NCBI GenBank assembly: GCA_964573295.1
Contig: CAZNJE010000022.1
Span: 5,761-69,760 of the forward strand
From: an uncultured bacterium
GTDB lineage: Bacteria > Eisenbacteria > RBG-16-71-46 > CAIMUX01 > WJJG01
DNA length: 64,000 nt
Reading direction: 5' to 3'
Shown: positions 244 through 63,245 of the stretch, one piece after another
Layout of the letters: every line of letters starts with the position of its first letter
How positions within the stretch are numbered: position 1 is the stretch's first letter
Made by a program: the position numbers and the translations under genes
The notes under the pieces: generated by a model
Told to the model about the DNA's origin: nothing
What the model saw: only the letters and a program-made list of their open reading frames with translations
Database searches by the model: none

Positions 244-2099
244 TACAGTTTCTCCCTTTCGGCTGAAAACATCTCGAGATCGCCCTCGAGCAGAACCGCG
301 GGATTCTGCAGGTGGAAGCGAGTGAGCACCTCTGGATGAATCTCACCAAATGTAAGGATGCTGGTTCCCTGGGGAACGCTGGCGGATCCGGTCCAGACCG
401 CTTCGGCTACCCGGCCCGCCAGGAAAGGAGGCGCCTGCACCGGCCGCAGCTCCCAGGTTGCACCCAGCTCCCTCAAGATCGCCTCGGCCACCGCCTTGAT
501 GTCTTCGAACCCGCATCGCGTGGCAATCATGCCGCACGCGAACCGGCGGCGCTCTCGGGCTCCGGTCTCGGCGGCGTCGTCCAGCAACGTGACGTCACCT
601 ACCTCGAAGATCCGTTGCGGCAGCGGCTGGGTTACGTTGTGCTCCAGCGTGGCCAGCAAGCCAGGCAGGAGAGAGGCGCGAAGCATCGTCTGCTCGCTGC
701 TGATCGGATGGGCCACCTCCACCACGCCCTGATCTCGCGCCCGCCCCAGAGCATCGTCATGCATCTCGTGGTTGGTGAGCACGAGTGTCATGACCTCCAG
801 GAAACCCAGCCCCTGGAAGGCCACCCGCAGGCGGTTCGAGAGCTCCTCGATCGGATGAGCCCGGCCCACGGTGAAGGTGGGCACAAGAGATTGCGGGATA
901 TTGTGATAGCCGTAGGCGATCGCCAGGTCCTCGATCAGATCGATCTGATGGAGGATGTCATTGCGGTAGGCGGGTACGCCCACGGTCACCTCGTCCTCGC
1001 CGGTTACCTCGGCGTCGTGGCGCATTCGGCGTAGCAGCCCGGCCGCCCGCTCCGGATCGAGCCCGACGCCGATCACTCGCGTCGCCCTCGCCGGGGAAAC
1101 CTTCATGGTTTGCAGCTCAAAATCCGGCGTCACCCGGCGCTGGTCCTCTCCCGGTCCCACGATCTCGACCGCGTGGGCGGTGGCTCCCGGCAGGTTCTCC
1201 AGAAGGCTGCTCACCATGATGTTCAGGGTACGCTCGACGACCCGCTGCCCCAATCCGGTAACATCGATGAAGAGCCGGGTGGATGCGACCGTCACCTTCG
1301 TGCCCTCCGAATTGATGATCGGCGGCATCGAAAGCACCTGTCCGCGCGCATCCTTGAGGACCGGGTAGCGCGCCAGGCCCTTGAGCAGCTGGGCGTAGGC
1401 GGTGCCCTTGGGGTGATCTTCGAGGATCGCTTGCATCGTCACGGCGTGCTCGGCGCCAGGACCGGGCGCACCCAAGGGCGTGAAGCGGAAGCTGGCCGGA
1501 TCCTCGGCCGTGTAGGTGATCTCGCCTTCCAGGGTACTGAGATCGTAGACCCCGATCGAGGCGTGCTTGCGATTACGCCCCACGGCCCAGTGCAGGTTCT
1601 CCTGCAGCTTCATGATGATCTTCAGGCTGTCGAGATCGAGATGCGCGTTCTCGATCACGGCGCACGCGATCCAGGGCCGGTAGGAGTCGGCTTCCCGCAC
1701 GATCGGATCCACCGTGAGCCGCAGCGCAGGCGGCCCGATTTCGTAGCGCGGGGCGCCCGTTTCGGTTCCGCTATAGCCGCGTAGCACGCGTGCCAATCCA
1801 CCCGGATCGAACATGTCCGGACGAACGGCCAGCAGTTCCATTCGGATCACATCCAGGGGGGGCAGTTCCGAGTGGTGTTCCCTGAGGTTGCCGCCGCAGT
1901 TCTCGCACAGCGGAGGCACATCCTCGGTCTCGGTCATCTCGATCGCGCTGCCGCAGGTCTCGCAGCGAACACGCTTGAGCGTGGTGAACCCCTCCACGTC
2001 GCATCCCAGGTGACCCAGCTGAGCCAAGAGGTCGTCCGGACTGGGCTCGGCGCGCATGAGCGTCTGCAATCGTTCGAGCGGGATGCCGATCACCGGCAT
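243..2099 (-). CDS. pheT: Phenylalanine--tRNA ligase beta subunit, archaeal/eukaryal type (~618 aa), with a C4 zinc-ribbon-like insert
   Basis: The 243..2624 ORF is trimmed to the ATG at 2099 (MPVIGIPLERLQTLM), which overlaps the pheS 3' end by ~10 nt. The N-terminus resembles archaeal/eukaryal beta subunits (MPTVSV...-like), not bacterial PheT (MKFSELWL..., ~800 aa). It lies directly downstream of pheS. Confidence 0.8.
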   Translation of the reverse strand: MPVIGIPLERLQTLMRAEPSPDDLLAQLGHLGCDVEGFTTLKRVRCETCGSAIEMTETEDVPPLCENCGGNLREHHSELPPLDVIRMELLAVRPDMFDPGGLARVLRGYSGTETGAPRYEIGPPALRLTVDPIVREADSYRPWIACAVIENAHLDLDSLKIIMKLQENLHWAVGRNRKHASIGVYDLSTLEGEITYTAEDPASFRFTPLGAPGPGAEHAVTMQAILEDHPKGTAYAQLLKGLARYPVLKDARGQVLSMPPIINSEGTKVTVASTRLFIDVTGLGQRVVERTLNIMVSSLLENLPGATAHAVEIVGPGEDQRRVTPDFELQTMKVSPARATRVIGVGLDPERAAGLLRRMRHDAEVTGEDEVTVGVPAYRNDILHQIDLIEDLAIAYGYHNIPQSLVPTFTVGRAHPIEELSNRLRVAFQGLGFLEVMTLVLTNHEMHDDALGRARDQGVVEVAHPISSEQTMLRASLLPGLLATLEHNVTQPLPQRIFEVGDVTLLDDAAETGARERRRFACGMIATRCGFEDIKAVAEAILRELGATWELRPVQAPPFLAGRVAEAVWTGSASVPQGTSILTFGEIHPEVLTRFHLQNPAVLLEGDLEMFSAEREKL

Positions 2100-3628
2100 A
2101 CGGGCACCTCCTTCAACCACTCCAGGTCCGTCAGATACAGCGAGCGCATATCCAGGATGTTGTACTGCAGCATGGCCAATCGTTCGAGGCCTAGTCCCCA
2201 GGCCAGCACGGGACTCGTGCAGCCCAGGGGTTCGGTGACCTCCGGACGGAAGATTCCGGCGCCACCCATCTCGAACCAGTCCTGCTTCTCCGGAAGCCAG
2301 ATGAAGACCTCCACGCTGGGCTCGGTGTAGGGAAAGAAGCCGGGCCGGAACTCGAACTTCTCGAAGCCCATCTTGGTGTAGAAGGCGCCCAGGGTGCCGA
2401 GCAGATGCGCGAAGCTCGCCTGTTGGTCGATGATGATGCCGTCGACCTGTTGAAAGACGGGCAGGTGCTTGTAGTCGATCGCTTCGCGCCGGAAGACCCG
2501 GCCCATGCAGAAGACCTTGCGCGGAGAGGCCGGATTGGCGGCCACCGACCGAGCGCTGGCTGCCGTGTTGTGCGTGCGCAGCACCGCCGTCATCGCCCGC
2601 TTTGGATCCCAGCGGTACTGCCAACCCTGCGAGCCGGTCGCGCCCCCATCCTCGTGGGTGGCCGCCACCCGCTCGACGAGCCCCGTGTCATCCGGCAAGG
2701 GGACTTCGGAGGGCCTCTTCAGATAGAAGGTGTCCTGCATCTCGCGCGCCGGGTGATCCTGCGGTTGGAACAGGGCGTCGAAGTTCCAGAAGGCCGACTC
2801 GACCCAGGGCGTACGCACTTCCTCGAAGCCCATCTCGACGAAGATGCGCCGGGTGGTGTCGAGCACCCGCTGCATCGGATGGGGCTTGCCCGGCGCGATG
2901 GCCGATACGCCCAGATCGATGTCGTAGTTCTTGTAGGTGACCTCGCGCCACTCCCCCGTGGCGATCAGTTCGGGGGTGAGTTGCGCGACCTCGCGTGCTT
3001 CCTCGATTCCTTCCGCGACCGTCTCGCCGCCCGCCGGCGAGAGACGCACGTACCGCCGGCGCTTCTGCTTCACCTCGATCAGCTCCCGGCGGCCCTTGAG
3101 CAGCTCGAGGGCGGCGGCGACGTCGAGTCCTTCTGCGGCCAGATCAGGGGTGCCGGCACGTTGCCCCGGCCGCCGGCTGAGCGCCTCGAGCAGGGCCTCG
3201 TCGGGCCCCGCGCCCGCCAGACCCTCACCGGCCTTCTCTCCCAGAACGAGTTCGGGACCCTTCTTGATGGCCCATCCCTTGGCGGTCAAGAGTTTGAGCG
3301 AGGCGCCCACCTGCCGGGTCTCCAGCCCCGATCGCTCGGGCAACTCCTGCATCGTGAGACCTCGCCCTGCCACGCTCAGGGCCTCGAGAACGCGCCGCTC
3401 GGGCAACTTGCCCTGCACGGCGGCCTCCCCGCCCTCCTTGAGCACGATCTCCTCGAAGGGCGACTCTTCGATCTCGACCAGACCTTGATTCGCCAGGAGC
3501 TGGGCCCCGGCCGCGACCAGCGCCTGGTCGACCTGCAACGTGCCGGCCAAGGCCGGGATCTCGACTGGCTCATCGAGGCCTTCGAGTCCCTTCAGGATCA
3601 AGAACTGCTCGCGAGAAAAAAGGCGCAT
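2090..3628 (-). CDS. pheS: Phenylalanine--tRNA ligase alpha subunit, archaeal/eukaryal type (512 aa) with N-terminal winged-helix extension
   Basis: The C-terminal class II aaRS core reads FRPGFFPYTEPSVEVFIWLPE...GLGLERLAMLQYNILDMRSLY. The SD TGAGGAGGA lies 5 nt upstream of the ATG at 3628. Its length fits the archaeal type, not bacterial PheS (~340 aa). Confidence 0.85.
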   Translation of the reverse strand: MRLFSREQFLILKGLEGLDEPVEIPALAGTLQVDQALVAAGAQLLANQGLVEIEESPFEEIVLKEGGEAAVQGKLPERRVLEALSVAGRGLTMQELPERSGLETRQVGASLKLLTAKGWAIKKGPELVLGEKAGEGLAGAGPDEALLEALSRRPGQRAGTPDLAAEGLDVAAALELLKGRRELIEVKQKRRRYVRLSPAGGETVAEGIEEAREVAQLTPELIATGEWREVTYKNYDIDLGVSAIAPGKPHPMQRVLDTTRRIFVEMGFEEVRTPWVESAFWNFDALFQPQDHPAREMQDTFYLKRPSEVPLPDDTGLVERVAATHEDGGATGSQGWQYRWDPKRAMTAVLRTHNTAASARSVAANPASPRKVFCMGRVFRREAIDYKHLPVFQQVDGIIIDQQASFAHLLGTLGAFYTKMGFEKFEFRPGFFPYTEPSVEVFIWLPEKQDWFEMGGAGIFRPEVTEPLGCTSPVLAWGLGLERLAMLQYNILDMRSLYLTDLEWLKEVPVCR

Positions 3629-3637
3629 GGATCCTCC

Positions 3638-4423
3638 TCACCCCGATTGCGAATGTGTGCTCGCGCGGACCCGCGCGGCCTCACCACAGAGCAGCGCCGC
3701 GGCCGTTTCGGCCCGCAGGCGCCGGGGACCAAGGGTAACACAGGTGGCCCCCGCCTGATGCAGCCGCGTACGCTCGCCATCCGACCAGCCCCCTTCGGGA
3801 CCCACGAGAAGAAGCGTCTCCGCCGGCGCGAAGCCGGCCAGCGTACGGGCCGTCAGCGTCTCACCCGCCGGATCGGCACAGATCAGCCGTGCGCCCTCGC
3901 GCGCAGCCTGCAATTCTATCAAGTCTCCGTGAAGGGCCACCGGCGGGCACAGGGCCCGGCCGGCCTGCTTCATGGCGGCCCTCGCCACCCGGCTCCACCG
4001 ATCGCACTTGCCCTCTGCGCGGGCCAGGCTCCATCCCACCGAACGCTCGGCGCCGAACAGGTCGATCCCCACAACACCCAGCTCGACCGCCTTCTCGATC
4101 GCCCATTCGAGCCGTACCGATGTCCGGATCCAGGCCAGGCCCAGTCGGCCGGCCTGCGCCCGTTCACCGCAGGCCGTCTCGAGCCGGCCCAACCGCACGT
4201 CCATGTGGCTTCCGGTGACCTGCTCCACTACGGCCCGGCACTGGCGGCCCTCGCCGTCGACCAGCACCACCTCGGCGCCCCGCGTGACGCGCAAGACCCG
4301 GGCGGCATGATGGCCTTCCTCTTCCGGCAGGCGTACGACCGCGCCGGGATCCGGCCAGGGCGAGGGCAGGTAGAACCACCGGTGTGACGCCGCGTGGGCG
4401 CCGTTGTCAGCTACGGAAGGCAT
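3638..4423 (-). CDS. rsmE: 16S rRNA (uracil1498-N3)-methyltransferase RsmE
   Basis: The ORF is trimmed to the ATG at 4423 (MPSVADNG...HRWFYLPS, an RsmE-like N-terminus). The glycine-rich SAM site LLVGPEGGWSDGE is typical. It overlaps the dnaJ 3' end by 17 nt. Confidence 0.8.
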   Translation of the reverse strand: MPSVADNGAHAASHRWFYLPSPWPDPGAVVRLPEEEGHHAARVLRVTRGAEVVLVDGEGRQCRAVVEQVTGSHMDVRLGRLETACGERAQAGRLGLAWIRTSVRLEWAIEKAVELGVVGIDLFGAERSVGWSLARAEGKCDRWSRVARAAMKQAGRALCPPVALHGDLIELQAAREGARLICADPAGETLTARTLAGFAPAETLLLVGPEGGWSDGERTRLHQAGATCVTLGPRRLRAETAAALLCGEAARVRASTHSQSG

Positions 4424-9420: not shown

Positions 9421-10175
9421 TCATCGAACGATGGTCAAGATCCGTTCCCATCGCGGCGTGCTCCGATCGGCGTCCCAGGAGAAGTACCGCAGGAACGCCC
9501 GGCCGAGCACACGCTCGACCGGCACCGTTCCCCAGAACCGGCTGTCACGGCTGTTGTCGCGATTGTCACCCATGACGAAGACCTCTCCCCGCGGCACCTC
9601 GACCGGTCCGAAATTGTCGCGTACCGCCAGGCGTCCCGCGTCCGTATGCTGCACGAAAGCCTCCTCGACCGCAACGCCGTCGACGAGCAGGGCCTTGTCG
9701 CGCACCTCCACTGTCTGGCCGCCCACCGCGACGACCCGCTTGATGTAATCGATCATCGCGCCGTCCTCACCCTCCGGGCCGGAGGAGCGTTCGAAGACGA
9801 TGACGTCTCCCGGTGCGATCTCGCGCAGGCCCGGCAACCGGCCGCCCACGATCGGCACCAGGGCCCCGTACTCGAACTTCGTGATGAACAGGTAGTCGCC
9901 CACCAGAAGCGTTTGCTCCATCGACGGCGAGGGGATCCGAAAGGCCTGCACCACGAATGCTCTCAAGAAACCGAAGAGCAGCAGCGCGATCAATAGACTC
10001 TCGGCAACTTCCCGCAGCGGATGGAGGCGACGGATCCCCCGGCCCGACGGTTCGATCATCGGGCCGGAGCCTTCGCCGGCGTCTCCGTGGACTTCGGCGC
10101 GCGCCCCACGTTTGCCGGGTGCGCCGGGGGCAGACTTCGGGCTCTGGTTCGGAAGCGTCTGGCCATCGGCCGGTG

Positions 10176-10179
<4 letters not shown>
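9421..10179 (-). CDS. lepB: Signal peptidase I
   Basis: Catalytic boxes are RIPSPSMEQTL (Ser box), GDYLFITKF, GDNRDNSRDSRFWG and VLGRAF. The ATG at 10179 overlaps the lepA stop as ATGA. Confidence 0.85.
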
Positions 10180-12005
<1,826 letters not shown>

Positions 12006-12029: not shown

Positions 12030-12653
12030 CTACCAGCGCCACCCTACACCCAGGCGCATGGACAGTCCCTGTGCGTGCGTGTCGGCGCCTTCGACCGGCG
12101 CGGGGATCCCGTCCAGTGTCACGTCGAAGCTCTGCAGGTGCGCGTCGACGAAGGCATCCCCCATCGAGAGCAGGACGAAGAGGCTCGTCCACCAGATGAA
12201 GTCGCGTCGGTGGCCCTTGTGCCGGTCTTCTTTGCGCTCGTAAAAGTCGGCCTGCTCCGGGTAGTCCCGCTGCTTGTCGCGATACTCGTGCACCATGCGG
12301 TCCTCGAAGTGGAGCCGCTCGATCATCGCTCCCTCGATGCCCGCAACCAGAATCGCTTTCCACCACATGCCGTTCTTGGCCTGCCCCCAGCCCGGAATCA
12401 CCAAAGAGCGCAACGCCACCCACGTAGGCGCATCAAATGTCCCCTGGGACGAGGCGTCAGGGTGGGGCTCTGCTGCCTCTTCGCCCGCAGGGGACCGCGG
12501 CCCCGGCTGCTGGGTCTGCGCATCAGGGCCGGGGTCGGTCTGTTCCGGGCGCATGACCGGTTCTGGGTCTGCTTGATCCTCCTGGCCATGCACCGACCCG
12601 GCGCCTACGAGCAGTAGCGCCGGCAGGAACAGGATGGTGATCCACCTGGGCAA
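12030..12653 (-). CDS. Hypothetical exported or membrane protein
   Basis: A TTG start at 12653 is proposed, with GAGGG 7 nt upstream. A hydrophobic N-terminus (ITILFLPALLLVGAGSVHG) is followed by an acidic or Pro-rich segment. The C-terminus has W-rich TM-like segments (IPGWGQAKNGMWWKAILVAG). I do not recognise a family with confidence. Confidence 0.4.
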   Translation of the reverse strand: MPRWITILFLPALLLVGAGSVHGQEDQADPEPVMRPEQTDPGPDAQTQQPGPRSPAGEEAAEPHPDASSQGTFDAPTWVALRSLVIPGWGQAKNGMWWKAILVAGIEGAMIERLHFEDRMVHEYRDKQRDYPEQADFYERKEDRHKGHRRDFIWWTSLFVLLSMGDAFVDAHLQSFDVTLDGIPAPVEGADTHAQGLSMRLGVGWRW

Positions 12654-12671
12654 ATCTTCGCCCTCAATCGT

Positions 12672-12717
12672 GAGGGGTGACTCGGCGCCAATCCGGGCGT
12701 CACGCGAGTCACCCCTC
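12672..12717 (-). terminator. Stem-loop (13-bp perfect inverted repeat GAGGGGTGACTCG/CGAGTCACCCCTC, 20-nt loop) immediately 3' of the tRNA-Sec
   Basis: The inverted repeat is seen directly in the sequence. No U-tract follows, so it may be a processing or termination structure and not a classic intrinsic terminator. Confidence 0.35.
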
Positions 12718-12725
12718 GATAAGCT

Positions 12726-12822
12726 GGCGGGAACGTGTGGGAATCGAACCCACCCTGGACGTGCACGACGCCCAACACAGGCTTTGAAGGCCCGGGAGCC
12801 CACCAGGACCCATTCGCTCCCT
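12726..12822 (-). tRNA. selC: tRNA-Sec (anticodon UCA), selC-like, 97 nt including encoded CCA
   Basis: The reverse complement folds exactly like E. coli selC. It has an 8-nt acceptor GGGAGCGA/ACGTTCCC. A 2-nt linker and a 6-bp D-stem GGGTCC/GGGCTC with 4-nt loop TGGT follow. The anticodon stem CGGGC/GCCTG has loop CUUCAAA, identical to the selC loop, giving anticodon UCA. A 24-nt variable stem-loop GGGCGT/ACGTCC follows. The T-arm is GTGGG-TTCGATT-CCCAC. G73 and CCA end the molecule. Confidence 0.7.
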
Positions 12823-12902
12823 GATTCGTAACTCGAATACGCGCAACAGCATAAGGAATTCGGCCCTGGGTGTCAACGCGCCCGCGCGATGAACCTGCAC
12901 GA

Positions 12903-14582
12903 TCAGGGCGTTTCCGATCTCTCCGGCTCGGCCAGGGCACGCTGGGCCCGCAGGCGAACTTCCGGATGGGCATCAGCGTCCTCGATCACCGACTCGTATA
13001 GGGTGCGGGCGTCCGCCTGCTTGCCGCCCACAGCCAGCGTGGCGGCAACGTTGCAGCGCAGCATCGGATGAGATCCCTGAAATCGCTTCCATCCCCCGGC
13101 CCAGGCGATCAGCTTACCGATCTCATCGTGAAGGCCCTGGCGACCCATGCGGCCGGTGAGCTCGATCAAGAGGTCGTCGGCCGCCCCCAGGGAGGCGGCT
13201 TCCACCGCCAGGGCGGCTCCCTTCTGCCAGTCGCCTTGCGCCATCGCAAGCGTCGCGGTAATCCCCTTTACGGCCCAGGATTGCGGGTACGTCTTCGCAA
13301 GGGACTTGAGCTCGTCGACCCGGGTGACCCCCTGTCTCGGGAAGTCACCGTCCAGGAACAGATTCAGGTTCTCCATCCGGTTCGGGTTCGCCGCGATGGC
13401 CGCGCGGATCACCTCCCCGGCCTTTTCATGGTGCCCGGTGAACCACAGCAGCTGTCCGCGGCAGGCCAGCGTGGCCTCGCCCTCTGGATCGAGCTTCTCG
13501 AGGCGGGAGAGCGCCGCCTCGGCATCGGCGAACCGTTCGAGCGCGATGAGGGCGCGGCACCGGGCGGCCCGGACCTCGGCCTCGGCCGCACGGCCCTCCC
13601 CTGCCCGAGCCGGCGCGTCATTCTCGCCTTCCGCAGCCGCATCCGGCGCGACCTCCCCGCCTTCCGCAACCCGAGCCGGCTCGTCCTCCCCGGCTTCCGT
13701 AGTCCGAGTCCCAGTCTCTGCCTCTCGTTCTGCGGCCTCCCTCCCCTCCGCGGCGTCGCCACCGGGCCGGTTCGCCATCTTCTCCAGAGCGCGATCGGCC
13801 GCTTCCAGAGCCAGGCTGGGCTGTCCGTTGCGCAAATGGAACTCGGAGCGCTCGAGGTAGAAGTCCAGATCGCGCGGCTCGCTCTTCCAGGAATCGACGA
13901 TGACCTTCTCGTAGGCTTCCCGCGGGACGAAGGCCTTCTGCAGGTCATCCAGATCGCCCAGGAAGATTTCGACCATCTCCCCCAGGAAAGCCATGCGCTC
14001 GAGCACGACGGGGTGGTCATCCTGGATGGCCAGCGCATCTCGGTAACAAGCCTTGGCTCGCTCGAGTTCTCCCTTCCGCTCGGCCAGCCGGCCGCGCAAC
14101 AGATGCAGGTCCGCCTCCTCGCGAAGCGACGTCTCGAGTTCGGCCAGGACGGCCTCGGCCTTCTCCACCTGCCCGCGCTCGAGCAGGCACAGCCCGGTCA
14201 GCAGACGGGCCCGCTGGTCGGTCGGATCGATGTCGTGGACTTCGTGCAGGAGCGTCTCGGCATCCTCCCAAGCCTTGAGCGCGAGCGCTTCCTCCACCTT
14301 CGCTGCCAGTGGGGCCTTCTTCACGAGCGTGGCCAGCTCACCAGCCAGCGGATGGTCGGCATGTTCGGTAACGAACTGCCGCGCGTAGGCCGCCACCTGG
14401 GCGTGGGTGAGCCGATCGGGCCGGTGCCTGCGCCCCCATTGCTTCCACGCCTGCTTCGGCACCGGAATCCTCTCGGGTAGGCTACCGCCGCGGCGCCGCG
14501 CGGGATCGAGGCGATAGATTCGCCACGGTCCGACCGGCTCATAGCCGACGATCCGCTCGACCTGCTGACTGATCCAGCTCAT
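12903..14582 (-). CDS. TPR repeat-containing protein
   Basis: It has multiple TPR-like helical repeats. A central acidic, Ala/Glu-rich low-complexity segment is present. No catalytic motifs were recognised. Confidence 0.6.
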   Translation of the reverse strand: MSWISQQVERIVGYEPVGPWRIYRLDPARRRGGSLPERIPVPKQAWKQWGRRHRPDRLTHAQVAAYARQFVTEHADHPLAGELATLVKKAPLAAKVEEALALKAWEDAETLLHEVHDIDPTDQRARLLTGLCLLERGQVEKAEAVLAELETSLREEADLHLLRGRLAERKGELERAKACYRDALAIQDDHPVVLERMAFLGEMVEIFLGDLDDLQKAFVPREAYEKVIVDSWKSEPRDLDFYLERSEFHLRNGQPSLALEAADRALEKMANRPGGDAAEGREAAEREAETGTRTTEAGEDEPARVAEGGEVAPDAAAEGENDAPARAGEGRAAEAEVRAARCRALIALERFADAEAALSRLEKLDPEGEATLACRGQLLWFTGHHEKAGEVIRAAIAANPNRMENLNLFLDGDFPRQGVTRVDELKSLAKTYPQSWAVKGITATLAMAQGDWQKGAALAVEAASLGAADDLLIELTGRMGRQGLHDEIGKLIAWAGGWKRFQGSHPMLRCNVAATLAVGGKQADARTLYESVIEDADAHPEVRLRAQRALAEPERSETP

Positions 14583-17638: not shown

Positions 17639-17679
17639 TACGTGTGAGCAACGTAGCGGCCGGCTCCGGTTGCTACCGC

Positions 17680-17689
17680 TTCTGCTACC
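17680..17689. repeat. Left copy of the 10-bp direct repeat TTCTGCTACC flanking the hicBA islet (an additional TTGCTACC copy at 17670-17677)
   Basis: Identical 10-mers lie at 17680-17689 and 18646-18655. The ~960 bp between them has visibly lower GC than its surroundings. Confidence 0.5.
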
Positions 17690-17824
17690 GTACTATGGTC
17701 AATCGGGTTCACTAGTGTCCACCGGTGTTCATAGGGCAGCCTGGCTCTGGCATCTGGCTCTGGCATAAGGAGAAGCCCGCAACCGAACTCGAGGCGCAGA
17801 GCGAAGCCGACAGGAGCAGAGACG

Positions 17825-18056
17825 TTACAGCACTCCCTTTGGAAGATTGAAGCGGCGGACCAGAGCCGAGATGATGCCAACAGAGATTACTGCCTTGCGC
17901 CCATGGACTGGAATGGGAATCGACGCGGCCCTCCCATGAATGTCTGGGTGGTATACCACCACGTGGCTCCCTTTTCCACGATTAGCCCAAAACTCGAAGC
18001 GTTGATCGTGCTTTGCGAGTTTCTTTTGCAGCTGCCTGAAAGTGTAGCTCTTAGGC
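17825..18056 (-). CDS. hicA: Type II toxin-antitoxin system HicA-family toxin (mRNA interferase)
   Basis: The ATG is at 18056 (MPKSYTFRQLQKKLAKHDQRFEFWANRGKGSHVVVYHPDIHGRAASIPIPVHGRKAVISVGII...). It has the HicA signature G-x-GSH...H-P....IP.HG.K.I..G. It is 77 aa and overlaps the hicB stop by 6 nt. Confidence 0.75.
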
Positions 18057-18398
18057 ATTTGCCTCTGCGAAGTTGAGTTTCCGCGGCTGCGGCACTGGGA
18101 TGTTGGCCAGCTGGAAACCTGCCTCCTGGTGCGTGTGTGGGAATGAAGCAAGGATCTCCCTTGAGATCTGCTCGAATATGGCGAACAACTCGGGTGGAGC
18201 TGGATGGCTCAGCAGCTCCGACTGATCCTGACGATACGCAAAGCTAACCTGAAGAGCAATGGCATCCTTCAGCTCGTCAAGAGCAGCCTCGAAACTCCGT
18301 CCTTCTCCGATTAGATCCATCTCCAGGCAGTGAGCAGTCCATTTGCGACCTTGCTTATACCCAAGCACACGCAAATTGAGGTTCACCTTGTTGGACAT
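18051..18398 (-). CDS. hicB: Type II toxin-antitoxin system HicB-family antitoxin (UPF0150-like N-domain)
   Basis: The ATG is at 18398 (MSNKVNLNLRVLGYKQGRKWTAHCLEMDLIGEGRSFEAALDELKDAIALQVSF...). This is the HicB N-terminal RNase-H-like fold pattern. It lies immediately upstream of and overlapping hicA. Confidence 0.7.
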   Translation of the reverse strand: MSNKVNLNLRVLGYKQGRKWTAHCLEMDLIGEGRSFEAALDELKDAIALQVSFAYRQDQSELLSHPAPPELFAIFEQISREILASFPHTHQEAGFQLANIPVPQPRKLNFAEANA

Positions 18399-18645
18399 TC
18401 GTCCCACTGTGCTGCCCCCTAGCCTTGGACGGCGCAGACGCCCCTTGCTGCTACCAACATCGACATTCTTGTTACGCATAGCTCTCCATCAAAGCGAAGC
18501 ATAGCACAATGGCCTGGACCTGCAGGGGAGCAACCAATATCTTCTTCGGTCGCCCCGCGGCCCCTCCCGATAGAAAATACCTCTGACCGCTGCGCAATGT
18601 TCATAGCCGGAATGCACCGCAGTCCACCTGCTCCACGTGCTGCCA

Positions 18646-18655
18646 TTCTGCTACC
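18646..18655. repeat. Right copy of the 10-bp direct repeat TTCTGCTACC (followed by TTTGCTACC at 18658-18666)
   Basis: See the left copy at 17680-17689. Confidence 0.5.
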
Positions 18656-18819
18656 AGTTTGCTACCAGTTTGCTGACAGAACCAAGGGAAATCACGTTGA
18701 ATCACGAGGAACCAGGGCGACACCGCCGCCTGCTTGCCTGCTCCCTTTGCGCCCGCGCAACTCATTGCAGGTCAGCGCAATAGCAAAGGGCGACGCCACT
18801 TCTGACGCCGCCCTCACGG

Positions 18820-18892
18820 AGCCGATGCGCGGACTCGAACCGCGGACCTGCTCATTACGAATGAGCTGCTCTACCAGCTGAGCTACATCGGC
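18820..18892 (-). tRNA. tRNA-Thr (anticodon CGU)
   Basis: The reverse complement is GCCGATGTAGCTCAGCTGGTAGAGCAGCTCATTCGTAATGAGCAGGTCCGCGGTTCGAGTCCGCGCATCGGCT. It forms a cloverleaf with anticodon loop UUCGUAA. CCA is not encoded. Confidence 0.85.
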
Positions 18893-18937: not shown

Positions 18938-19010
18938 TGTGGTGCCCCCCAGAGTCGAACTGGGGACCCCCAGATTTTCAGTCTAGTGCTCTACCAACTG
19001 AGCTAGGGCA
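18938..19010 (-). tRNA. tRNA-Phe (anticodon GAA)
   Basis: The reverse complement is GGTGCCCTAGCTCAGTTGGTAGAGCACTAGACTGAAAATCTGGGGGTCCCCAGTTCGACTCTGGGGGGCACCA. The anticodon loop is CUGAAAA. CCA is not encoded. Confidence 0.9.
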
Positions 19011-19055
19011 CCACATAATGCAAGAGCGGAGATTAAGATAACCTCCCTCGCAAGG

Positions 19056-31788: not shown

Positions 31789-31791
31789 GGC

Positions 31792-43150: not shown

Positions 43151-44188
43151 TCAAGCCCCCTTTCTGAGCGCCAGCCCAACCCCAACAGCCAGCTGCGGGG
43201 CGATGTCCTGGGGATCCGATCCTTGGAAGATGTCCGGTAGGTAGCGCAGCCGTCGCAGCGGATTGATCATCTCGACCGGCAGGGGCTGCACCTGAGTCAG
43301 GGCTTCCACGAAGCCTGGGATGCGCGCGCCGCCGCCCGAGAGGAAGATCCGGTCCAGGTGCTCGGCTTCCCCGGACGTCCGCAGGTAGGTAGCCGACTTC
43401 TCCAGGCTCTGGGCGATGTCCTTGCAGAAGCTCTCTATCATGGGGGCGACCTCGAGCTTACCGCCTGTGGCCTGCAGCGCCTGCACCGCTTCCTCGCGGC
43501 TCACCTGGAACCGCTTCTGAATCGTTCGCACCACCGTGTTGATCCCAACCGACAGATCCTGCGTGTAGAGCGGCACCCCGTCGCGGATGATGTTCACGTT
43601 CGTGATCTCCGCGCCCAGATCGAGCAACACCGCCAGCTCCTCGGGCCGCAGGTCGTGCGCCGTCTCCACCACGTTCTGAATCGCGAAGGAGTTGACGTCG
43701 ATCACCTCCGGGGCCAGTCCGGCCTCGCGGATGATGTCGGCCAGATTCAGAATCAGGTCGCGCTTCGCCGCCACGAGCAGGACCTGCATCTGGTTCGGGC
43801 CGATGTCGGCGGGAAGGATTTCGTAGTCGATCGAAACGTCGTTGATGTCGTAGGGAATGTGCTGCTCGGCTTCCCAGTAGATCGCTTCGGCAGCGGCCTC
43901 TTCCGGAAGACGCTCCATGACGATCTTCTTGACGATCACCCCGCGGCCGTGAATGCCGGCAATCACCCGGCGGCGCCGGATGCCGCGTGACTCGAACAGG
44001 TTCTGAATCATCTCGACGACCATCTGGCGATCCATGATCTCGCCGTCGACGATCGTCTCCGGATCCAGCGGGGCCACCCCGTAGTTCAGCAGGTGGTACT
44101 CGTTGCCCTGGCGCTCGATTTCGACGACCTTGATGGCACTGGCGCCGATATCGAGCCCGACGGTTGTCTTCTTGCGTTTGTTGAACAC
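43151..44188 (-). CDS. pilM: Type IV pilus assembly ATPase-fold protein PilM
   Basis: MFNKRKKTTVGLDIGASAIKVVEI... has an actin-like fold. It shows PilM-family similarity throughout. Confidence 0.9.
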   Translation of the reverse strand: MFNKRKKTTVGLDIGASAIKVVEIERQGNEYHLLNYGVAPLDPETIVDGEIMDRQMVVEMIQNLFESRGIRRRRVIAGIHGRGVIVKKIVMERLPEEAAAEAIYWEAEQHIPYDINDVSIDYEILPADIGPNQMQVLLVAAKRDLILNLADIIREAGLAPEVIDVNSFAIQNVVETAHDLRPEELAVLLDLGAEITNVNIIRDGVPLYTQDLSVGINTVVRTIQKRFQVSREEAVQALQATGGKLEVAPMIESFCKDIAQSLEKSATYLRTSGEAEHLDRIFLSGGGARIPGFVEALTQVQPLPVEMINPLRRLRYLPDIFQGSDPQDIAPQLAVGVGLALRKGA

Positions 44189-57289: not shown

Positions 57290-59326
57290 CTAGTCGAGGA
57301 AGTGCCACTCGATGCCCATGCGGTATCCGCGTCCGGGAAGGGGCATCCATCCATCATCGTAGGTAGCCGACTCGCCCCAATCGCCCGGCGCGCTCGGGTC
57401 GCCCAGCGCGTTGTGGAGCGCCATGAAGAAGGAGGCATCCCGAATTCGTCCCCGCCCCTCCAGATCCAGCCGGGCATGCTCGGGTAGCTCTCCATAGGGA
57501 CTCGTCCGGGACCCGGTGTAGACCACGGTCGCCACACCCTGCCAGAGCAGGTCGCCCCTGAAAACGCTCCCCTCGGCCACCAGTGACACCTGCCCTCGCT
57601 CGCCCGGCTGAAAGACCGGCAGCTCCGCGAACGTTCGCGGCGTCAGCATGACCCGGCCCGATCCCTCCAGCGCAAAGCCGTAGAGGAGGTCGATACGGCC
57701 GCTCCCTTGCCAGGCCCAGAGATCGGCATCGCTCAGCAGTTGATCGCTCTGGAGCGATTCCCGGTCAGCCGGCACCAGGCGGGCGGCCTGATCGCCGCGC
57801 AATCCAATCCCGTTCTCGATGCGTCGCCACTCGGGCCCGGTCTCCAGCCGCAGCGGCCCGGCTCGCAAGCGCATACCCACGACGAGTTCGGTCACCCGCC
57901 GCAGTCCGCCCGTCGAAGCGTCCTCTCCGCCGGGGAAGAACAGGCCCCGTTCGAGCGCGGCTACCCCGTCCGGTTCGGCCCGCGGCACGAACTGCTGCGT
58001 GCCGCCGGACCATGCGCGGGCGAAGCCCCCCCACACGGTGCCCGGCTCGTAGGCTACGTCCAGATGCGCCCGCAGGTGTCCGGACTGCCACCAGGGATCG
58101 CTGTACCCAACGGCGGCTCGGTACGACCAGGGACCCGTCGCATGGACCCAGCCCATAGCGAGTCCCATGCCAGTGCGTGACCAGTTCTGCTCGCGGACGT
58201 GCCGGCGTCCGTAGCTCATTTGGGTGTGCTCGATCCCGATCGAGGCAAGGGCCTCTCCGGTGCCCAGGAAGATGCGGCGGCCGATCAGCGTCGCGCCCGT
58301 GGAGGTGCTCCGCCGCCGGATGTTTTCGTCGACCGACCACCAGCGGGTCAGATCATTCCGTCGCTCGATCACAAGCTCCGCATCGTAGGTCGTGCTCGAT
58401 AGCCATTGCCCACCCACGCTCAACTGCTCGGCTTCCCACAGAAGCTTGCGATGATTCTCGATGTTCACTTGGCCATGGCGTCCCGCGGCAACCGCCCGCA
58501 GGCCGCCCCAAGATTCGGCGCGATCGACCGCGAGGTAGAGGTTCTGGAATTTGGTCACATCGTACAGATAGCGGCCCGCGGCATTCGCGTGCGCGTAGCT
58601 GCCCTGGACGCCCCACGCACCCACGCGGCGGGCCAGGATCAGGTCTTCGGTGCCGGATCCGGATGGCCCTTCCGTGAGACGGAATGCGCTGGGCGTCCGC
58701 TGCGGCACGTGGTCCGGCAGGCTGGCGTAGATAGCACCGTCGCTACCCTGTCCCAGTGGATCGAACACCGGATCTGGATGGACGATGAAGACCGCCTCCG
58801 AGAGCAGCGGCGATAATGTGTGCGAGAGGCCTTCGGGCACTCCCGCTCCCGCCGTCGCCTGACCGGCCAAGCAGAAGGAGAACCGGTCGGTTCCCGGCCC
58901 CCAGGCATAGGGAGTGTCGTAGGCCCCCGGACTGCCCGCCGCGAAGAGACCCAGAGGGGACTCGGCCTCGATCAGTTCCGAGAAGTACATCGCCGAGGAG
59001 CGGGTCAGCTCGGCTCGCGTGGCAGCGGGTCTGGGCGTTCCGGCGGTCGTGCGCGCCAGCCGATAGTCGGCGCGCCACCAGAGCCCGGCCCGCGGGGCCT
59101 CAAGCGCGGCGGCCGAGTCGCCGAAGGCGATCGCAGCCAGCGAATCCGGCAACCCTCCCAGCGAGTCGGCGGAGACGGTCAGCGAGTCTGCCGAAACGCG
59201 CAGGGAGTCGGCTGGGGGGGGTGTCACCGGCGAGGTGGAGGGCGTCTTCAGAGGCCGGGATGGATCGGCGGCGAAGGCGCCCACGGCCGCCGGCAGGCCG
59301 GCGATGATGGCCAGGAGCGCCGCCAC
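57290..59326 (-). CDS. Uncharacterised large exported/outer-membrane-type protein
   Basis: It is a long ORF with a hydrophobic signal-like segment (AALLAIIAGLPAAVGAFA). The sequence is rich in Gly/Ser/Trp/Tyr with alternating patterns, suggestive of beta-strands. It ends ...YRMGIEWHFLD; the terminal F-x-D is not a classic OMP C-terminus. The start is uncertain: the GTG at 59326 is used, and in-frame upstream ATGs would encode an Arg/Thr-rich repeat from the 9-bp tandem array. Confidence 0.45.
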   Translation of the reverse strand: MAALLAIIAGLPAAVGAFAADPSRPLKTPSTSPVTPPPADSLRVSADSLTVSADSLGGLPDSLAAIAFGDSAAALEAPRAGLWWRADYRLARTTAGTPRPAATRAELTRSSAMYFSELIEAESPLGLFAAGSPGAYDTPYAWGPGTDRFSFCLAGQATAGAGVPEGLSHTLSPLLSEAVFIVHPDPVFDPLGQGSDGAIYASLPDHVPQRTPSAFRLTEGPSGSGTEDLILARRVGAWGVQGSYAHANAAGRYLYDVTKFQNLYLAVDRAESWGGLRAVAAGRHGQVNIENHRKLLWEAEQLSVGGQWLSSTTYDAELVIERRNDLTRWWSVDENIRRRSTSTGATLIGRRIFLGTGEALASIGIEHTQMSYGRRHVREQNWSRTGMGLAMGWVHATGPWSYRAAVGYSDPWWQSGHLRAHLDVAYEPGTVWGGFARAWSGGTQQFVPRAEPDGVAALERGLFFPGGEDASTGGLRRVTELVVGMRLRAGPLRLETGPEWRRIENGIGLRGDQAARLVPADRESLQSDQLLSDADLWAWQGSGRIDLLYGFALEGSGRVMLTPRTFAELPVFQPGERGQVSLVAEGSVFRGDLLWQGVATVVYTGSRTSPYGELPEHARLDLEGRGRIRDASFFMALHNALGDPSAPGDWGESATYDDGWMPLPGRGYRMGIEWHFLD

Positions 59327-59336
59327 GGCGACCGTA

Positions 59337-59399
59337 CGGACCCTGCGGACCCTGCGGATCGTGCGGGTCGTGCGGGTCGTGCGGATCGTGCGGGTCGTG
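59337..59399. repeat. Seven tandem 9-bp units (GGACCCTGC/GGATCGTGC/GGGTCGTGC) immediately 3' of the TPR gene stop and 5' of the downstream gene
   Basis: It is seen directly. On the coding strand it reads (CGCACGACC/CGCACGATC)n. Confidence 0.55.
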
Positions 59400-61949
59400 C
59401 TAGGCCGCGCGTCCCTCGATTTCGGCAAGGAGCGCCGACGCCTCCCGATCTTCGGGCTGCTCTTCAAGCAGGCTGCGCAGACTCTCCTTGGCCGCATCGA
59501 TCTCTCCCACCGCCTGGTACTCACGGGCCAGCAGATACCGCAGACCGTTGCGCTCGGCGGAGGATCCTTCACCGCCTTCCAGACTCTGGCGGAACTCGTG
59601 AATCGCCTCCCGGTGGCGGTCGAGTCGGCTCAGGCACGTGCCGCGCAGCTCGCACAACCGCCGCGCAAAGTCGCCCGCGGCTTCCTCTCCGGCCAGCGCC
59701 TGCTCGAACTCCGCAAGAGCTTCTTCGTAGAGCTCCATTTCCATGTGCGAGACGCCCAGATCGTAGTGAGCCTGCGCATCGTCTTCACCGACCTGCTGCT
59801 TGATCCCCTCCTGGAACTCCTCGAGCAGGGCGCCGAGTTCCATCCACTCCTGGTGCGCGCTGTCGCCTGGTGTGCTCTCCCCCGCCCGCACGTCCACCAA
59901 GGCTTCCTTCGAAGAAAGGACCTCTTCGATCGTGCCCGGATTGCTCACATCGGCCGGCGCGCTCGCCTCGGCTCCATCGCTCATCTCCGCCGGCGCGCTC
60001 GCCTCGGCTCCATCGCTCATCTCCGCCGGCGCGCTCGCCTCGTCCGTATCCGGCGTCGTCTCGACGTCCATGCCGAGTTCGGCGAATCGCACCAGGCGCC
60101 GCTGCACCGTTTCATTCGCGGAATCGAGCGTCAGGGCACGCCGGAAATGGGGCACGGCCGCCGGCAGATCCCCTTCCTGAATGCATAGATCTCCCAGCAG
60201 AATCAGACCGCGCACAATGCCGGCATTGTCCTGAAGCGCCTCGGAGATCTCAATGAGTTTCTCGGCTGCTTCCTGCGACTGGGTCTCCAGACGAATCCAC
60301 TCTTCGACCCGCTTCGCCGCCACGGTGTATTGCTCGGCCTCGATGGCCAGCCGCGTCGCAGTAGCCGGATTCGCCAGGTGTCCGGCATCGAGGAAGCCCT
60401 CATCCGCGTCGATCTCGATTACGCCCGGCATCGGGGCATCGGCATCATCCTCGTCCAGGACCTCGCCGCCGCCACTGCCTCCCCCTGAAGGGCTGGTGTC
60501 CGCGGACCCGGCCAAATCGCCAGCATCCGTGGACTCCGTGGCATCGCCGGTGCCACCGGGCCCCACTGCAGGACCAGCGCCGGTGACCCCGGTCGCGGCG
60601 CCCGCTTCGGCGGATGGGCCGGCAGGGGTCTCGTCAGCGTCGAGGTCGATCTCCCGGAAGGAGATCGATCGCCGCGCACCGGTCTCCCCGTCTTTCACCC
60701 CGGAACAGGTCATCGTGTCCCGATGCGGTTTTGAATCCGTGTCGGATTCCTCGCTCTGCGAGGATCCGTCCTCCGCATCAGACGAGGACGCGGTGGGCGC
60801 GGCGGAAATCTCGAACGCTTCGGATACATTCTGCAGCGCCCGCGCCGGGGATGATCCGTCGGACGCCACCGCTCCAGATGCTCCGCCGTCCGACGGCTCG
60901 CCGGCTTCCGTGGGTGTCTGGCTCTGATCGGAGGAAAGGTCGTCCAGGTCGAACACGGCCGGTCCGCCCGGGGAATCGGCATCTTCTAGCGCGGCCGGTC
61001 CGCCCGGGAGATCGGCATCCTCGAGCGCGGCCGGTGGGCCCGGGGCATGGGCATCCTCGAGCGCGGCCGGTCTCTCCGGCGGATCGGCGTCGCCGGCACC
61101 GATGCTCTCGAACGTGGTCTGGATCTCGGCGAGAACCTCCTCGCGCGTGTCATCATCGGTCGAGTTCCCCGAACCACCAGCCTCATGCGGGGACGGTCCC
61201 TCAGCGTCGTCCTCAGTATCACGCGTCGCCAGCATCTGCCCCACCCGTTCGGTCACGCCGGGATCGAGTTCGGCCGCCTTCGCCAGCAGCTCGGACGCCA
61301 GGTCGCGCTCACCCGATTCGTGAGCAACCTCGGCCGATCGTAACAGGACATCGGCGGCGTCATCGGTGCGGTTCAAACCGATCAGCACCTGGCTGAGGTG
61401 CAAGGCCAGCGTAGCGCGGCGCGGGGCGAGTTCACAGGCATGGGCCACGCCGTCGCGGAAGGTCTGCTGCTCGCGTTCTTCGGGAGAAGCGCTGGCCAAG
61501 TAGATCGCGTAGGACTCGAGGGCATCCCCGACCAAGTCATCGGCGGCATAGAGCGTCCCGAGGAGGCGGTGAACGTCGTGGCGCGAGCTATCGATCCTCA
61601 AAATCTTGCGACACAGGGCAATGGCATTGCGATGGAAGCCCAGTTTGCGATAGTGCGCGATGGCAGACTGGTAGTGTCCGACGGCTCCCTCGAGATCGCC
61701 GGCCTTCACGCACAGATCGCCCACGTAGAGGTAGTCATACGGATCCGCATCCGACTCCAAGATGGGAAGGTATGTCTGGATCGCCTTGGCGACCTGCCCT
61801 GCTTTGGCGAGCTTCTGGGCATTGCGTCTGATCGAGATGTTTTTCTGCAAGCCTCTGCACCCCCGAGCGGTCTTGACCGGGATACACGAATGCGACCAGA
61901 ACATTGCCGTGTCACTTCTGTGTATCGTCCGCGCGGGGGGGCATCTCAA
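59400..61949 (-). CDS. Large TPR-repeat protein with two long acidic low-complexity linkers containing tandem peptide repeats
   Basis: It has N-terminal, central and C-terminal TPR-like blocks (e.g. LILLGDLCIQEGDLPAAVPHFRRALTLD). Acidic repeats (AALEDA... x3 and ASAPAEMSDGAE x2.5) are encoded by DNA tandem repeats at ~59930-60020 and ~60960-61090. No signal peptide was seen. The start is ambiguous (ORF start 61949; ATG at 61904; or TTG at 61850 giving MQKNISIRR...). Confidence 0.55.
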   Translation of the reverse strand: MRCPPARTIHRSDTAMFWSHSCIPVKTARGCRGLQKNISIRRNAQKLAKAGQVAKAIQTYLPILESDADPYDYLYVGDLCVKAGDLEGAVGHYQSAIAHYRKLGFHRNAIALCRKILRIDSSRHDVHRLLGTLYAADDLVGDALESYAIYLASASPEEREQQTFRDGVAHACELAPRRATLALHLSQVLIGLNRTDDAADVLLRSAEVAHESGERDLASELLAKAAELDPGVTERVGQMLATRDTEDDAEGPSPHEAGGSGNSTDDDTREEVLAEIQTTFESIGAGDADPPERPAALEDAHAPGPPAALEDADLPGGPAALEDADSPGGPAVFDLDDLSSDQSQTPTEAGEPSDGGASGAVASDGSSPARALQNVSEAFEISAAPTASSSDAEDGSSQSEESDTDSKPHRDTMTCSGVKDGETGARRSISFREIDLDADETPAGPSAEAGAATGVTGAGPAVGPGGTGDATESTDAGDLAGSADTSPSGGGSGGGEVLDEDDADAPMPGVIEIDADEGFLDAGHLANPATATRLAIEAEQYTVAAKRVEEWIRLETQSQEAAEKLIEISEALQDNAGIVRGLILLGDLCIQEGDLPAAVPHFRRALTLDSANETVQRRLVRFAELGMDVETTPDTDEASAPAEMSDGAEASAPAEMSDGAEASAPADVSNPGTIEEVLSSKEALVDVRAGESTPGDSAHQEWMELGALLEEFQEGIKQQVGEDDAQAHYDLGVSHMEMELYEEALAEFEQALAGEEAAGDFARRLCELRGTCLSRLDRHREAIHEFRQSLEGGEGSSAERNGLRYLLAREYQAVGEIDAAKESLRSLLEEQPEDREASALLAEIEGRAA

Positions 61950-61952
61950 CCG

Positions 61953-63245
61953 TCAGCTTGAGGAAAGCCGCGGCATCTGCCTGCGCACGACACTGCGCCC
62001 GGCGATGAACAGGTCGCGCAGATCAGGGTAGCCGACGTGGTAGGGCAGACGCGCGTAGGAGGGCGCATCCAGGATCTGGACATCGGCCCGGTAGCCGGGC
62101 AGCAGGGCCCCACGGTCGCTCGCCAGTCCCAGAGCGGCGGCAGCGTTGTAAGTGGCGGCCACGACGGCTTCAGCCGGGGTCAGGTCCATCTGGAGACAGG
62201 ACAGGGCGATGATCCAGGGCATCGACTCGGTCATCGAGCTGCCCGGGTTGCAGTCGGTGGCGATCGCCACCGGCACCCCGGCTCGAATCAGCTTGCGAGC
62301 CGGTGCGTATTCTCTTGTCTTCAAGGAAAATAGCGTCCCCGGCAACAGCACGGCCACCGTCCCGGCTTCGGCCAGGGCGGCCATACCGGCCTCCGAGATC
62401 CGGCCCAGATGGTCGGCCGAAATCGCCCCGACCTCGGCTGCCAGTTCGGCTCCACCCATCGGCTCGATCTCGTCGGCATGCAGTTTCGGCGTCATGCCGG
62501 CCGCGCGCGCCGCCCGGAGGATTCGGCGGGATTGCGCCACATCGAAAACGCCCTTCTCGCAGAACACGTCGCAGAAGCGTGCAATGCCCAGACGGCCCGC
62601 CGCCGGAATCATCTCCTCGACCAGCAGGTCGACGTACTCATCGGTACGCGGGCGGTACTCGGCGGGCACCTCGTGCGCCCCGAGGTAGGTGGCCACGACC
62701 TCCAGCGGGTGGCGCCGGTCCAACTCGGCGATCAACCGCAGCGCTCTTTGCTCCTGTTCGGGATCGAGCGCATACCCGGTCTTGATCTCGACCGTGCCCG
62801 TGCCGAACGCGGCCATTTGATCCATCCGCCGGAGCGACTCGGCCAGAAGCGCCTCGTCGATTGCGGCCCGGAACATCGAAACGCTCGAGAGGATACCGCC
62901 TCCGGCCGAGGCGATCTCCATGTAGGACTTGCCCTCGAGCCGCTGTTCGAACTCCCACTCCCGCGTGCCGGCGAAGAGCACGTGCGTGTGAGGATCGACG
63001 AAGGCCGGCAGGATTACCCCGCCGCGCGCATCCACCTCTTCCCCGGCCTCGGCCAGCACGTACTCCCGTAGCAGGTGATCACTGGGGCCCACCGCGATGA
63101 TCCGTCCTTCACGGGCCACCAGACCAGCGTTCGTCATGAGTCCGAGTTCGGCCATCTCGGCCCCGACCTTAGGATGCCCCGGTACCGCCGGCGCCATGGT
63201 CAACACCTGGGCCGCTCCGGTGATGCGCAGATCGATCGCCGTCAT
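61953..63245 (-). CDS. hutI: Imidazolonepropionase
   Basis: The ATG at 63245 is preceded by GGGAGGGG. The amidohydrolase metal-binding residues are FVDPHTHVLF...HADE...ATDCNPGSS. It is 431 aa. Confidence 0.85.
   Translation of the reverse strand: MTAIDLRITGAAQVLTMAPAVPGHPKVGAEMAELGLMTNAGLVAREGRIIAVGPSDHLLREYVLAEAGEEVDARGGVILPAFVDPHTHVLFAGTREWEFEQRLEGKSYMEIASAGGGILSSVSMFRAAIDEALLAESLRRMDQMAAFGTGTVEIKTGYALDPEQEQRALRLIAELDRRHPLEVVATYLGAHEVPAEYRPRTDEYVDLLVEEMIPAAGRLGIARFCDVFCEKGVFDVAQSRRILRAARAAGMTPKLHADEIEPMGGAELAAEVGAISADHLGRISEAGMAALAEAGTVAVLLPGTLFSLKTREYAPARKLIRAGVPVAIATDCNPGSSMTESMPWIIALSCLQMDLTPAEAVVAATYNAAAALGLASDRGALLPGYRADVQILDAPSYARLPYHVGYPDLRDLFIAGRSVVRRQMPRLSSS

Follow-up and report, generated by a model that had tools for sequence, protein, structure and literature searches.

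A predicted selC gene for tRNA-Sec(UCA) in an uncultured relative of Candidatus Eisenbacteria

Background

In the structure of Aquifex aeolicus tRNA-Sec the acceptor/T branch has an 8+5 layout and the D arm a 6-bp stem with a 4-nt loop, and the variable-arm stem of bacterial tRNA-Sec is 6-9 bp long (PMC3711452). Bona fide tRNA-Sec that depart from a perfect 8+5 are documented as well, among them variants with a 12-bp acceptor/T branch, of the Cloacimonetes type and others (PMC5330540). The same work regards G73 as essential in tRNA-Sec and tRNA-Sec itself as specific to selenoprotein-containing genomes, and finds that tRNA-Sec co-occurs with the Sec trait in the genomes surveyed (PMC5330540). 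Two groups of tRNAs come close to this form: allo-tRNAs and selC* tRNA-Cys combine a D arm like that of tRNA-Sec with a long variable arm, some of them also have a UCA anticodon, and such tRNAs obtain good scores with the covariance model for tRNA-Sec (PMC5389517).

Here we describe a tRNA-Sec gene in a 64-kb stretch of DNA from an uncultured bacterium; "the window" below means that whole stretch. The gene is very probably a functional selC, predicted to specify tRNA-Sec(UCA) in a relative of Candidatus Eisenbacteria. As a selC it is ordinary: a further member of a known family, from a poorly studied candidate phylum, and within reach of standard annotation tools.

Results

Detection of the gene

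ARAGORN called three tRNA genes in the window, one of which is a tRNA-SeC with anticodon TCA on the minus strand (Table 1). The Rfam tRNA-Sec model RF01852 matched positions 12729-12821 at 69.3 bits (gathering score 47; E = 4e-12) over its full length, model positions 1-91, and in Rfam clan competition it beat the general tRNA model RF00005. With the same model the tRNA-Sec of two related loci, L001 and L002, scored 68.8 and 69.7 bits. The initial annotation had placed a 97-nt tRNA-Sec gene at 12726-12822 and had named ARAGORN and the RF01852 model as ways to check it. Both recover the gene at that length; the interval was off by one base, and the strand, which had been left out, is minus. Two independent detectors, the fold, and covariation in 15 distinct homologues identify the element as a genuine tRNA-Sec gene.

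Table 1. Coordinates of the tRNA-Sec gene, its internal landmarks, its flanking signals and its neighbouring genes, in positions of the window
Feature	Position	Strand	Basis and remarks
tRNA-Sec(UCA) gene (selC)	12725-12821	minus	97 nt; ARAGORN, Rfam RF01852, MFE cloverleaf, covariation
Anticodon UCA	12785-12787	minus	tRNA nt 35-37, inside the 7-nt loop CUUCAAA
G73	12728	minus	MFE fold, alignment
Encoded CCA	12725-12727	minus	3' end of the tRNA gene
8th acceptor position A·A	12814 and 12736	minus	tRNA nt 8 and 86, Sec numbering 7 and 66
Sigma-70-like promoter, TTGACA-17 nt-TATGCT	12848-12876	minus	10/12 matches; conserved hexamers
13-bp perfect inverted repeat	12672-12717	minus	arms 12672-12684 and 12705-12717, 20 nt between them
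TPR-repeat protein gene	12903-14582	minus	Pfam; upstream neighbour of tRNA-Sec
DUF5683 protein gene	12030-12653	minus	Pfam; likely TTG start; downstream neighbour of tRNA-Sec
lepA	10176-12005	minus	after the DUF5683 gene; synteny conserved in relatives
lepB	9421-10179	minus	after lepA

Related loci

A scan of reference genomes with the TPR-repeat protein encoded upstream of the tRNA gave two metagenome-assembled genomes (MAGs), with 91% and 58% protein identity, and tRNA-Sec lies at the same place in both. More contigs were reached through LepA homologues from the protein collection, in all of which tRNA-Sec stands directly 5' of the DUF5683 gene and lepA. A degenerate DNA pattern spanning the D and anticodon arms retrieved 13 further copies from JGI metagenome contigs. 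Close relatives of the source organism are represented by CAZZIF01, CAZTDY01, GCA_964585945.1 and GCA_041890195.1.

The same tRNA-Sec gene is present in 19 related loci besides the window, and wherever these have enough flank the DUF5683 gene and lepA lie downstream of it. Relatives that share the locus reach down to 62% identity in LepA or 58% in the TPR protein. By LepA, the best relatives that have a name belong to Candidatus Eisenbacteria (75% and 62% identity). The synteny is shared by an NCBI MAG with the name Candidatus Eisenbacteria bacterium and a LepA 62% identical to that of the window. The window forms part of an NCBI contig of 71,974 bp, and its LepB is also found on a 2.3-kb Logan contig of the SRA run SRR7048224.

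Structure and covariation

Folded without constraint, the 97-nt RNA takes the Sec cloverleaf with all Sec hallmarks as its minimum free energy (MFE) structure. The acceptor stem has seven standard pairs, GGGAGCG with CGUUCCC, and is followed by a 2-nt linker; the D arm, GGGUCC-UGGU-GGGCUC, is a 6-bp stem with the 4-nt loop UGGU; the anticodon arm is a 5-bp stem with the 7-nt loop CUUCAAA. An 8-bp stem with a 5-nt loop forms the variable arm, and a single linker G separates it from the T arm, a 5-bp stem with the loop UUCGAUU. The D stem and loop, the long variable arm and G73 are therefore as the initial annotation had described them, with an encoded CCA after G73, and direct comparison bears out its statement that E. 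coli selC has the identical CUUCAAA loop.

We aligned 20 sequences, 15 of them distinct. Across the distinct sequences standard pairs fill 95.8% of cells, against 32-61% when the partners are slid, six stem pairs have changes on both sides, and none of 500 shuffles reached the observed values. The D helix and the stem of the variable arm are 100% paired across the clade, the latter with four pairs changed on both sides, and every one of the 15 distinct sequences has a T stem of 5 bp. The CUUCAAA loop is invariant in the 20 sequences and so is the discriminator G73 in the alignment. Pair 32:40, which closes the anticodon loop, changes from C-G to A-U in five sequences, and this covariation fixes UCA at positions 34-36. 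The high level of pairing and the compensatory changes across 15 distinct sequences speak for purifying selection on the structure.

The exception is the 8th acceptor position. All helices other than 7:66 are 93-100% paired in the 15 distinct sequences, whereas 7:66 is A·A, C·A or A·G and in none of them a standard pair, with both of its sides varying. Of the 8/5 arrangement proposed at the outset, the 8 nt on each acceptor strand and the 5-bp T stem stand, but the 8th pair is A·A and the standard pairs number only seven. SelB reads a 13-bp length signal in the acceptor/T branch, and the branch could still stack 13 layers if the A·A mismatch is accommodated. Position 7:66 belongs to the region defined in E. 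coli as the EF-Tu antideterminant, and the mismatch may have been selected. The non-standard position, kept across the clade, is the sole feature of this gene that might interest a specialist in tRNA-Sec.

Gene neighbourhood

Genes were predicted from codon usage, and about 56 proteins of the window were scanned against Pfam. On the minus strand the order is pheT, pheS, rsmE, dnaJ, a sugar transferase gene, a GT4 glycosyltransferase gene, hemW, lepB, lepA, the DUF5683 gene, tRNA-Sec, the TPR-protein gene, ridA and a phosphoglucomutase gene. Orthologues of the TPR protein, with 58% and 91% identity, occupy the same position in L001 and L002. The initial annotation had set the tRNA between lepA and a TPR-protein gene: the TPR side is correct, but on the lepA side the DUF5683 gene intervenes. 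The window contains no second copy of the tRNA 3' end, with up to 3 mismatches allowed, and hence gives no indication of a genomic island integrated at selC.

The start of the DUF5683 gene is easily misplaced. Gene callers have drawn this ORF across tRNA-Sec, to a length of 254 aa, in L004 (9214-9978) and L005 (3113-3877), and its counterpart in the window would be 12030-12803. The likely true start is a conserved TTG, at 12653 in the window, about 70 nt downstream of the tRNA. Annotators should keep the DUF5683 ORF from running over tRNA-Sec.

Several other features of the window deserve mention in their own right. The phenylalanyl-tRNA synthetase genes, pheT (243-2120) and pheS (2090-3628), both on the minus strand, encode an enzyme of archaeal type. 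PheT scores 468 bits with TIGR00471 (pheT_arch; cut-off 283) but does not reach the threshold of the bacterial model, and PheS, of 512 aa, matches NF003210 at 543 bits. The relatives have pheT and pheS genes of the same sizes. A pair of tRNA genes, tRNA-Thr(CGT) at 18818-18892 and tRNA-Phe(GAA) at 18939-19012 on the minus strand, adjoins a pair of genes for a response regulator and a GAF histidine kinase; this arrangement is kept in L004, L006, L007, L008, L009, L016 and L023. Between 33142 and 56545 lies a large type IV pilus cluster, with minor pilins and a PilX-like protein, a 935-aa protein with fn3 and lectin domains, a secretin, pilO/N/M, a prepilin peptidase, a pilin, a sigma-54 two-component pair, pilC, pilT and pilB. 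A 760-aa ORF at 57290-59572 on the minus strand has gene-like GC3 (0.81) but matches nothing in Pfam or NCBIfam; gene prediction had dropped it on account of its overlap with the start assigned to the next TPR gene. A gap of about 1.2 kb at 17639-18817 holds only an ORF with weak likeness to HicA toxin (17828-18151; 23.7 bits, below the Pfam cut-off) and an unassigned ORF of 142 aa.

Flanking transcription signals

The promoter-like site upstream of the tRNA ends, with its -10 hexamer, 26 nt 5' of the tRNA start, and 0.1 such sites are expected in shuffles. Both hexamers are kept in L001, L002 and L004 despite diverged spacer and flanks, and most other loci have TTGAC(A/C) and TAnnnT boxes at similar spacing. 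On the downstream side the 13-bp perfect inverted repeat reported by the initial annotation is present and begins 7 nt past the tRNA 3' end. Folded as RNA, the 70 nt downstream of the tRNA reach -35.3 kcal/mol (z = -3.6). Compensatory changes keep the 13-bp stem in L001, L004 and L006, and most of the other, more distant loci have a different and equally strong GC-rich hairpin at that place. The hairpin is followed by a short T-run in several relatives; that of the window has no U-run, and a consensus scan for terminators called no intrinsic terminator on the minus strand after the tRNA.

One position of this hairpin favours a role as RNA: it forms a U·G wobble in the sense transcript, where the opposite strand would have a C·A mismatch. 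We regard the hairpin as a probable terminator, without a U-run, or 3'-processing element of the selC unit. With a promoter-like site about 26 nt upstream and the hairpin 7 nt downstream, selC looks, as far as sequence signals can tell, like a small monocistronic transcription unit of its own.

Search for Sec machinery and selenoproteins

The initial annotation had seen neither selA, selB nor selD in the window and no obvious selenoprotein gene, and our searches came to the same result. Domains of SelA, SelB (SelB-wing) and SelD are absent from the roughly 56 predicted proteins of the window by Pfam. With E. coli SelA and SelD as queries, checked against the PDB entries 8UZW and 3U0O, tblastn gave no match in the 64-kb window or in any fetched related locus; E. 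coli SelB matched only the GTPase domain of LepA, in the window and in every locus.

In-frame TGA and read-through scans of the 64-kb window left no credible selenoprotein candidate. The single hit for an in-frame TGA flanked on either side by coding potential lies at plus-strand position 43988 and is the antisense shadow of pilM. Three cases of apparent read-through (rsmE/pheS, rsmD-like/coaD and amidohydrolase/TPR) are adjacent complete genes by Pfam that share a frame. Such frame-sharing pairs, here at 3629-3640, 31789-31791 and 61905-61955 with only a TGA stop and a few codons between the genes, look like UGA read-through to automated scans for selenoproteins.

Of the 54 predicted genes of the window 27 end in TGA, and UGA therefore serves as an ordinary stop codon. 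In E. coli, too, the 40 kb that surround selC (20 kb on each side) contain no selA, selB, selD or selenoprotein gene. Because E. coli selC is equally isolated, the lack of sel genes near selC is not unusual and is uninformative.

Discussion

The view that tRNA-Sec is confined to genomes with selenoproteins (PMC5330540) makes it reasonable to suppose, from the presence of tRNA-Sec, that the source organism decodes UGA as Sec. Given this specificity and the need for G73 (PMC5330540), the source genome in all likelihood encodes a full Sec machinery. If the established bacterial pathway applies, SerRS would charge tRNA-Sec with serine by way of G73 and the long variable arm, SelA would turn the serine into Sec with selenophosphate made by SelD, and SelB would bring the tRNA to UGA codons that have a SECIS hairpin after them, UGA elsewhere staying a stop codon.

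The alternative that survives best, although we consider it improbable, is that this selC is an orphan or has been repurposed. The lineage would have lost SelA, SelB and SelD or never had them, and the RNA would be a Ser-inserting opal suppressor, a regulatory RNA or a slowly decaying relic. This reading would fit the finding that no Sec machinery or selenoprotein gene was seen in the window or in the fetched related loci, and our literature search found no paper that joins Eisenbacteria and selenocysteine. The non-standard 8th pair could, moreover, weaken the 13-bp length signal for SelB. However, missing linkage says little when E. coli selC is just as isolated, and the Sec identity features (G73, UCA, the 6-bp D stem and the long variable arm) are intact. 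The co-occurrence of tRNA-Sec with the Sec trait in surveyed genomes (PMC5330540) also speaks against an orphan.

A relic is excluded by the strong conservation of the structure, with compensatory changes, in relatives with as little as 62% LepA identity, and by that of the promoter. There would then be left a selC under purifying selection in an Eisenbacteria-like lineage without SelA, SelB and SelD, in some other role, and to this we give slightly less credence than to the orphan reading as a whole. In such an orphan the clade-wide mismatch at 7:66 might leave the effective acceptor/T helix so short that EF-Tu could use the tRNA to read UGA and insert Ser. In a milder version of the idea the Sec system would be a normal one, and the 7:66 mismatch would be an anti-EF-Tu element particular to the lineage.

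It is still less likely that the gene is a tRNA-Sec look-alike: an allo-tRNA, a selC* tRNA-Cys(UCA), or a type-2 tRNA-Leu(CAA) or tRNA-Ser read in another register. ARAGORN can over-call tRNA-Sec (PMC5330540), and a good score on the covariance model is, as noted above, within the reach of the first two. Allo-tRNAs, however, are marked by branches of 8/4 or 9/3 and selC* tRNA-Cys by U73 (PMC5389517), whereas here the 5-bp T stem in 15 of 15 distinct sequences and the invariant G at position 73 exclude both. A type-2 tRNA-Leu(CAA) or tRNA-Ser would be recognised by a 7+5 branch, a D stem of 3-4 bp with a D loop of 7-12 nt, and a CAA or Ser anticodon at positions 34-36. We found instead a D arm of 6 bp with a 4-nt loop, unlike that of tRNA-Leu or tRNA-Ser, and a fixed UCA, and we reject this reading. 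The initial annotation had allowed that covariance-model scoring might favour tRNA-Leu(CAA) in the alternative register of the anticodon loop. That register needs another closure of the loop, yet it is 32:40 that covaries, and RF01852, not RF00005, wins the clan.

The last alternative, a chance cloverleaf in GC-rich intergenic DNA, could appeal to a single-sequence fold only modestly better than shuffles (z = -1.46), but it is refuted by the Rfam match and by the covariation, with 19 further homologues that show compensatory changes and a conserved promoter and synteny, and we give it next to no weight.

With tRNA-Sec as the preferred reading, selC marks an uncultured, Eisenbacteria-like lineage as a probable user of selenocysteine and gives annotators of these MAGs a reason to look for UGA-containing selenoprotein genes.

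Comparison with known tRNA-Sec genes

The E. coli selC sequence used for comparison matched 5,425 of 5,426 E. coli genomes, with 100% identity in the listed records annotated as tRNA-Sec. The two genes have in common the CUUCAAA loop, the 6-bp D stem with its 4-nt loop, the long variable arm, the 5-bp T stem, G73, the encoded CCA and 8 nt on each acceptor strand, and both stand alone. They differ in sequence, with 58 of 97 aligned columns identical, in length (95 nt in E. coli, 97 nt here), and in the 8th acceptor pair, which is a Watson-Crick C-G in E. coli and A·A here.

The likeness to Aquifex tRNA-Sec extends from the 8+5 layout, the 6-bp D stem with 4-nt loop and a variable-arm stem within the 6-9 bp range to the loops UGGU of the D arm and UUCGAUU of the T arm and to the linker G48 that precedes the T stem (PMC3711452). 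On the other hand, the gene described here has no bulges of the C11a or U43a type, its equivalent of 26:44 is a C·U mismatch, and its 7:66 is not a standard pair. With the 8th pair as the one caveat, it has all the structural features by which bacterial tRNA-Sec is defined (PMC3711452).

The 8th pair invites comparison with the variants that have a 12-bp acceptor/T branch, which likewise have only seven standard acceptor pairs and retain G73 (PMC5330540). Those variants lie mostly in selABC operons (PMC5330540), and this selC does not. Because it has 8 residues on both acceptor strands, it falls outside the 12-bp-branch class.
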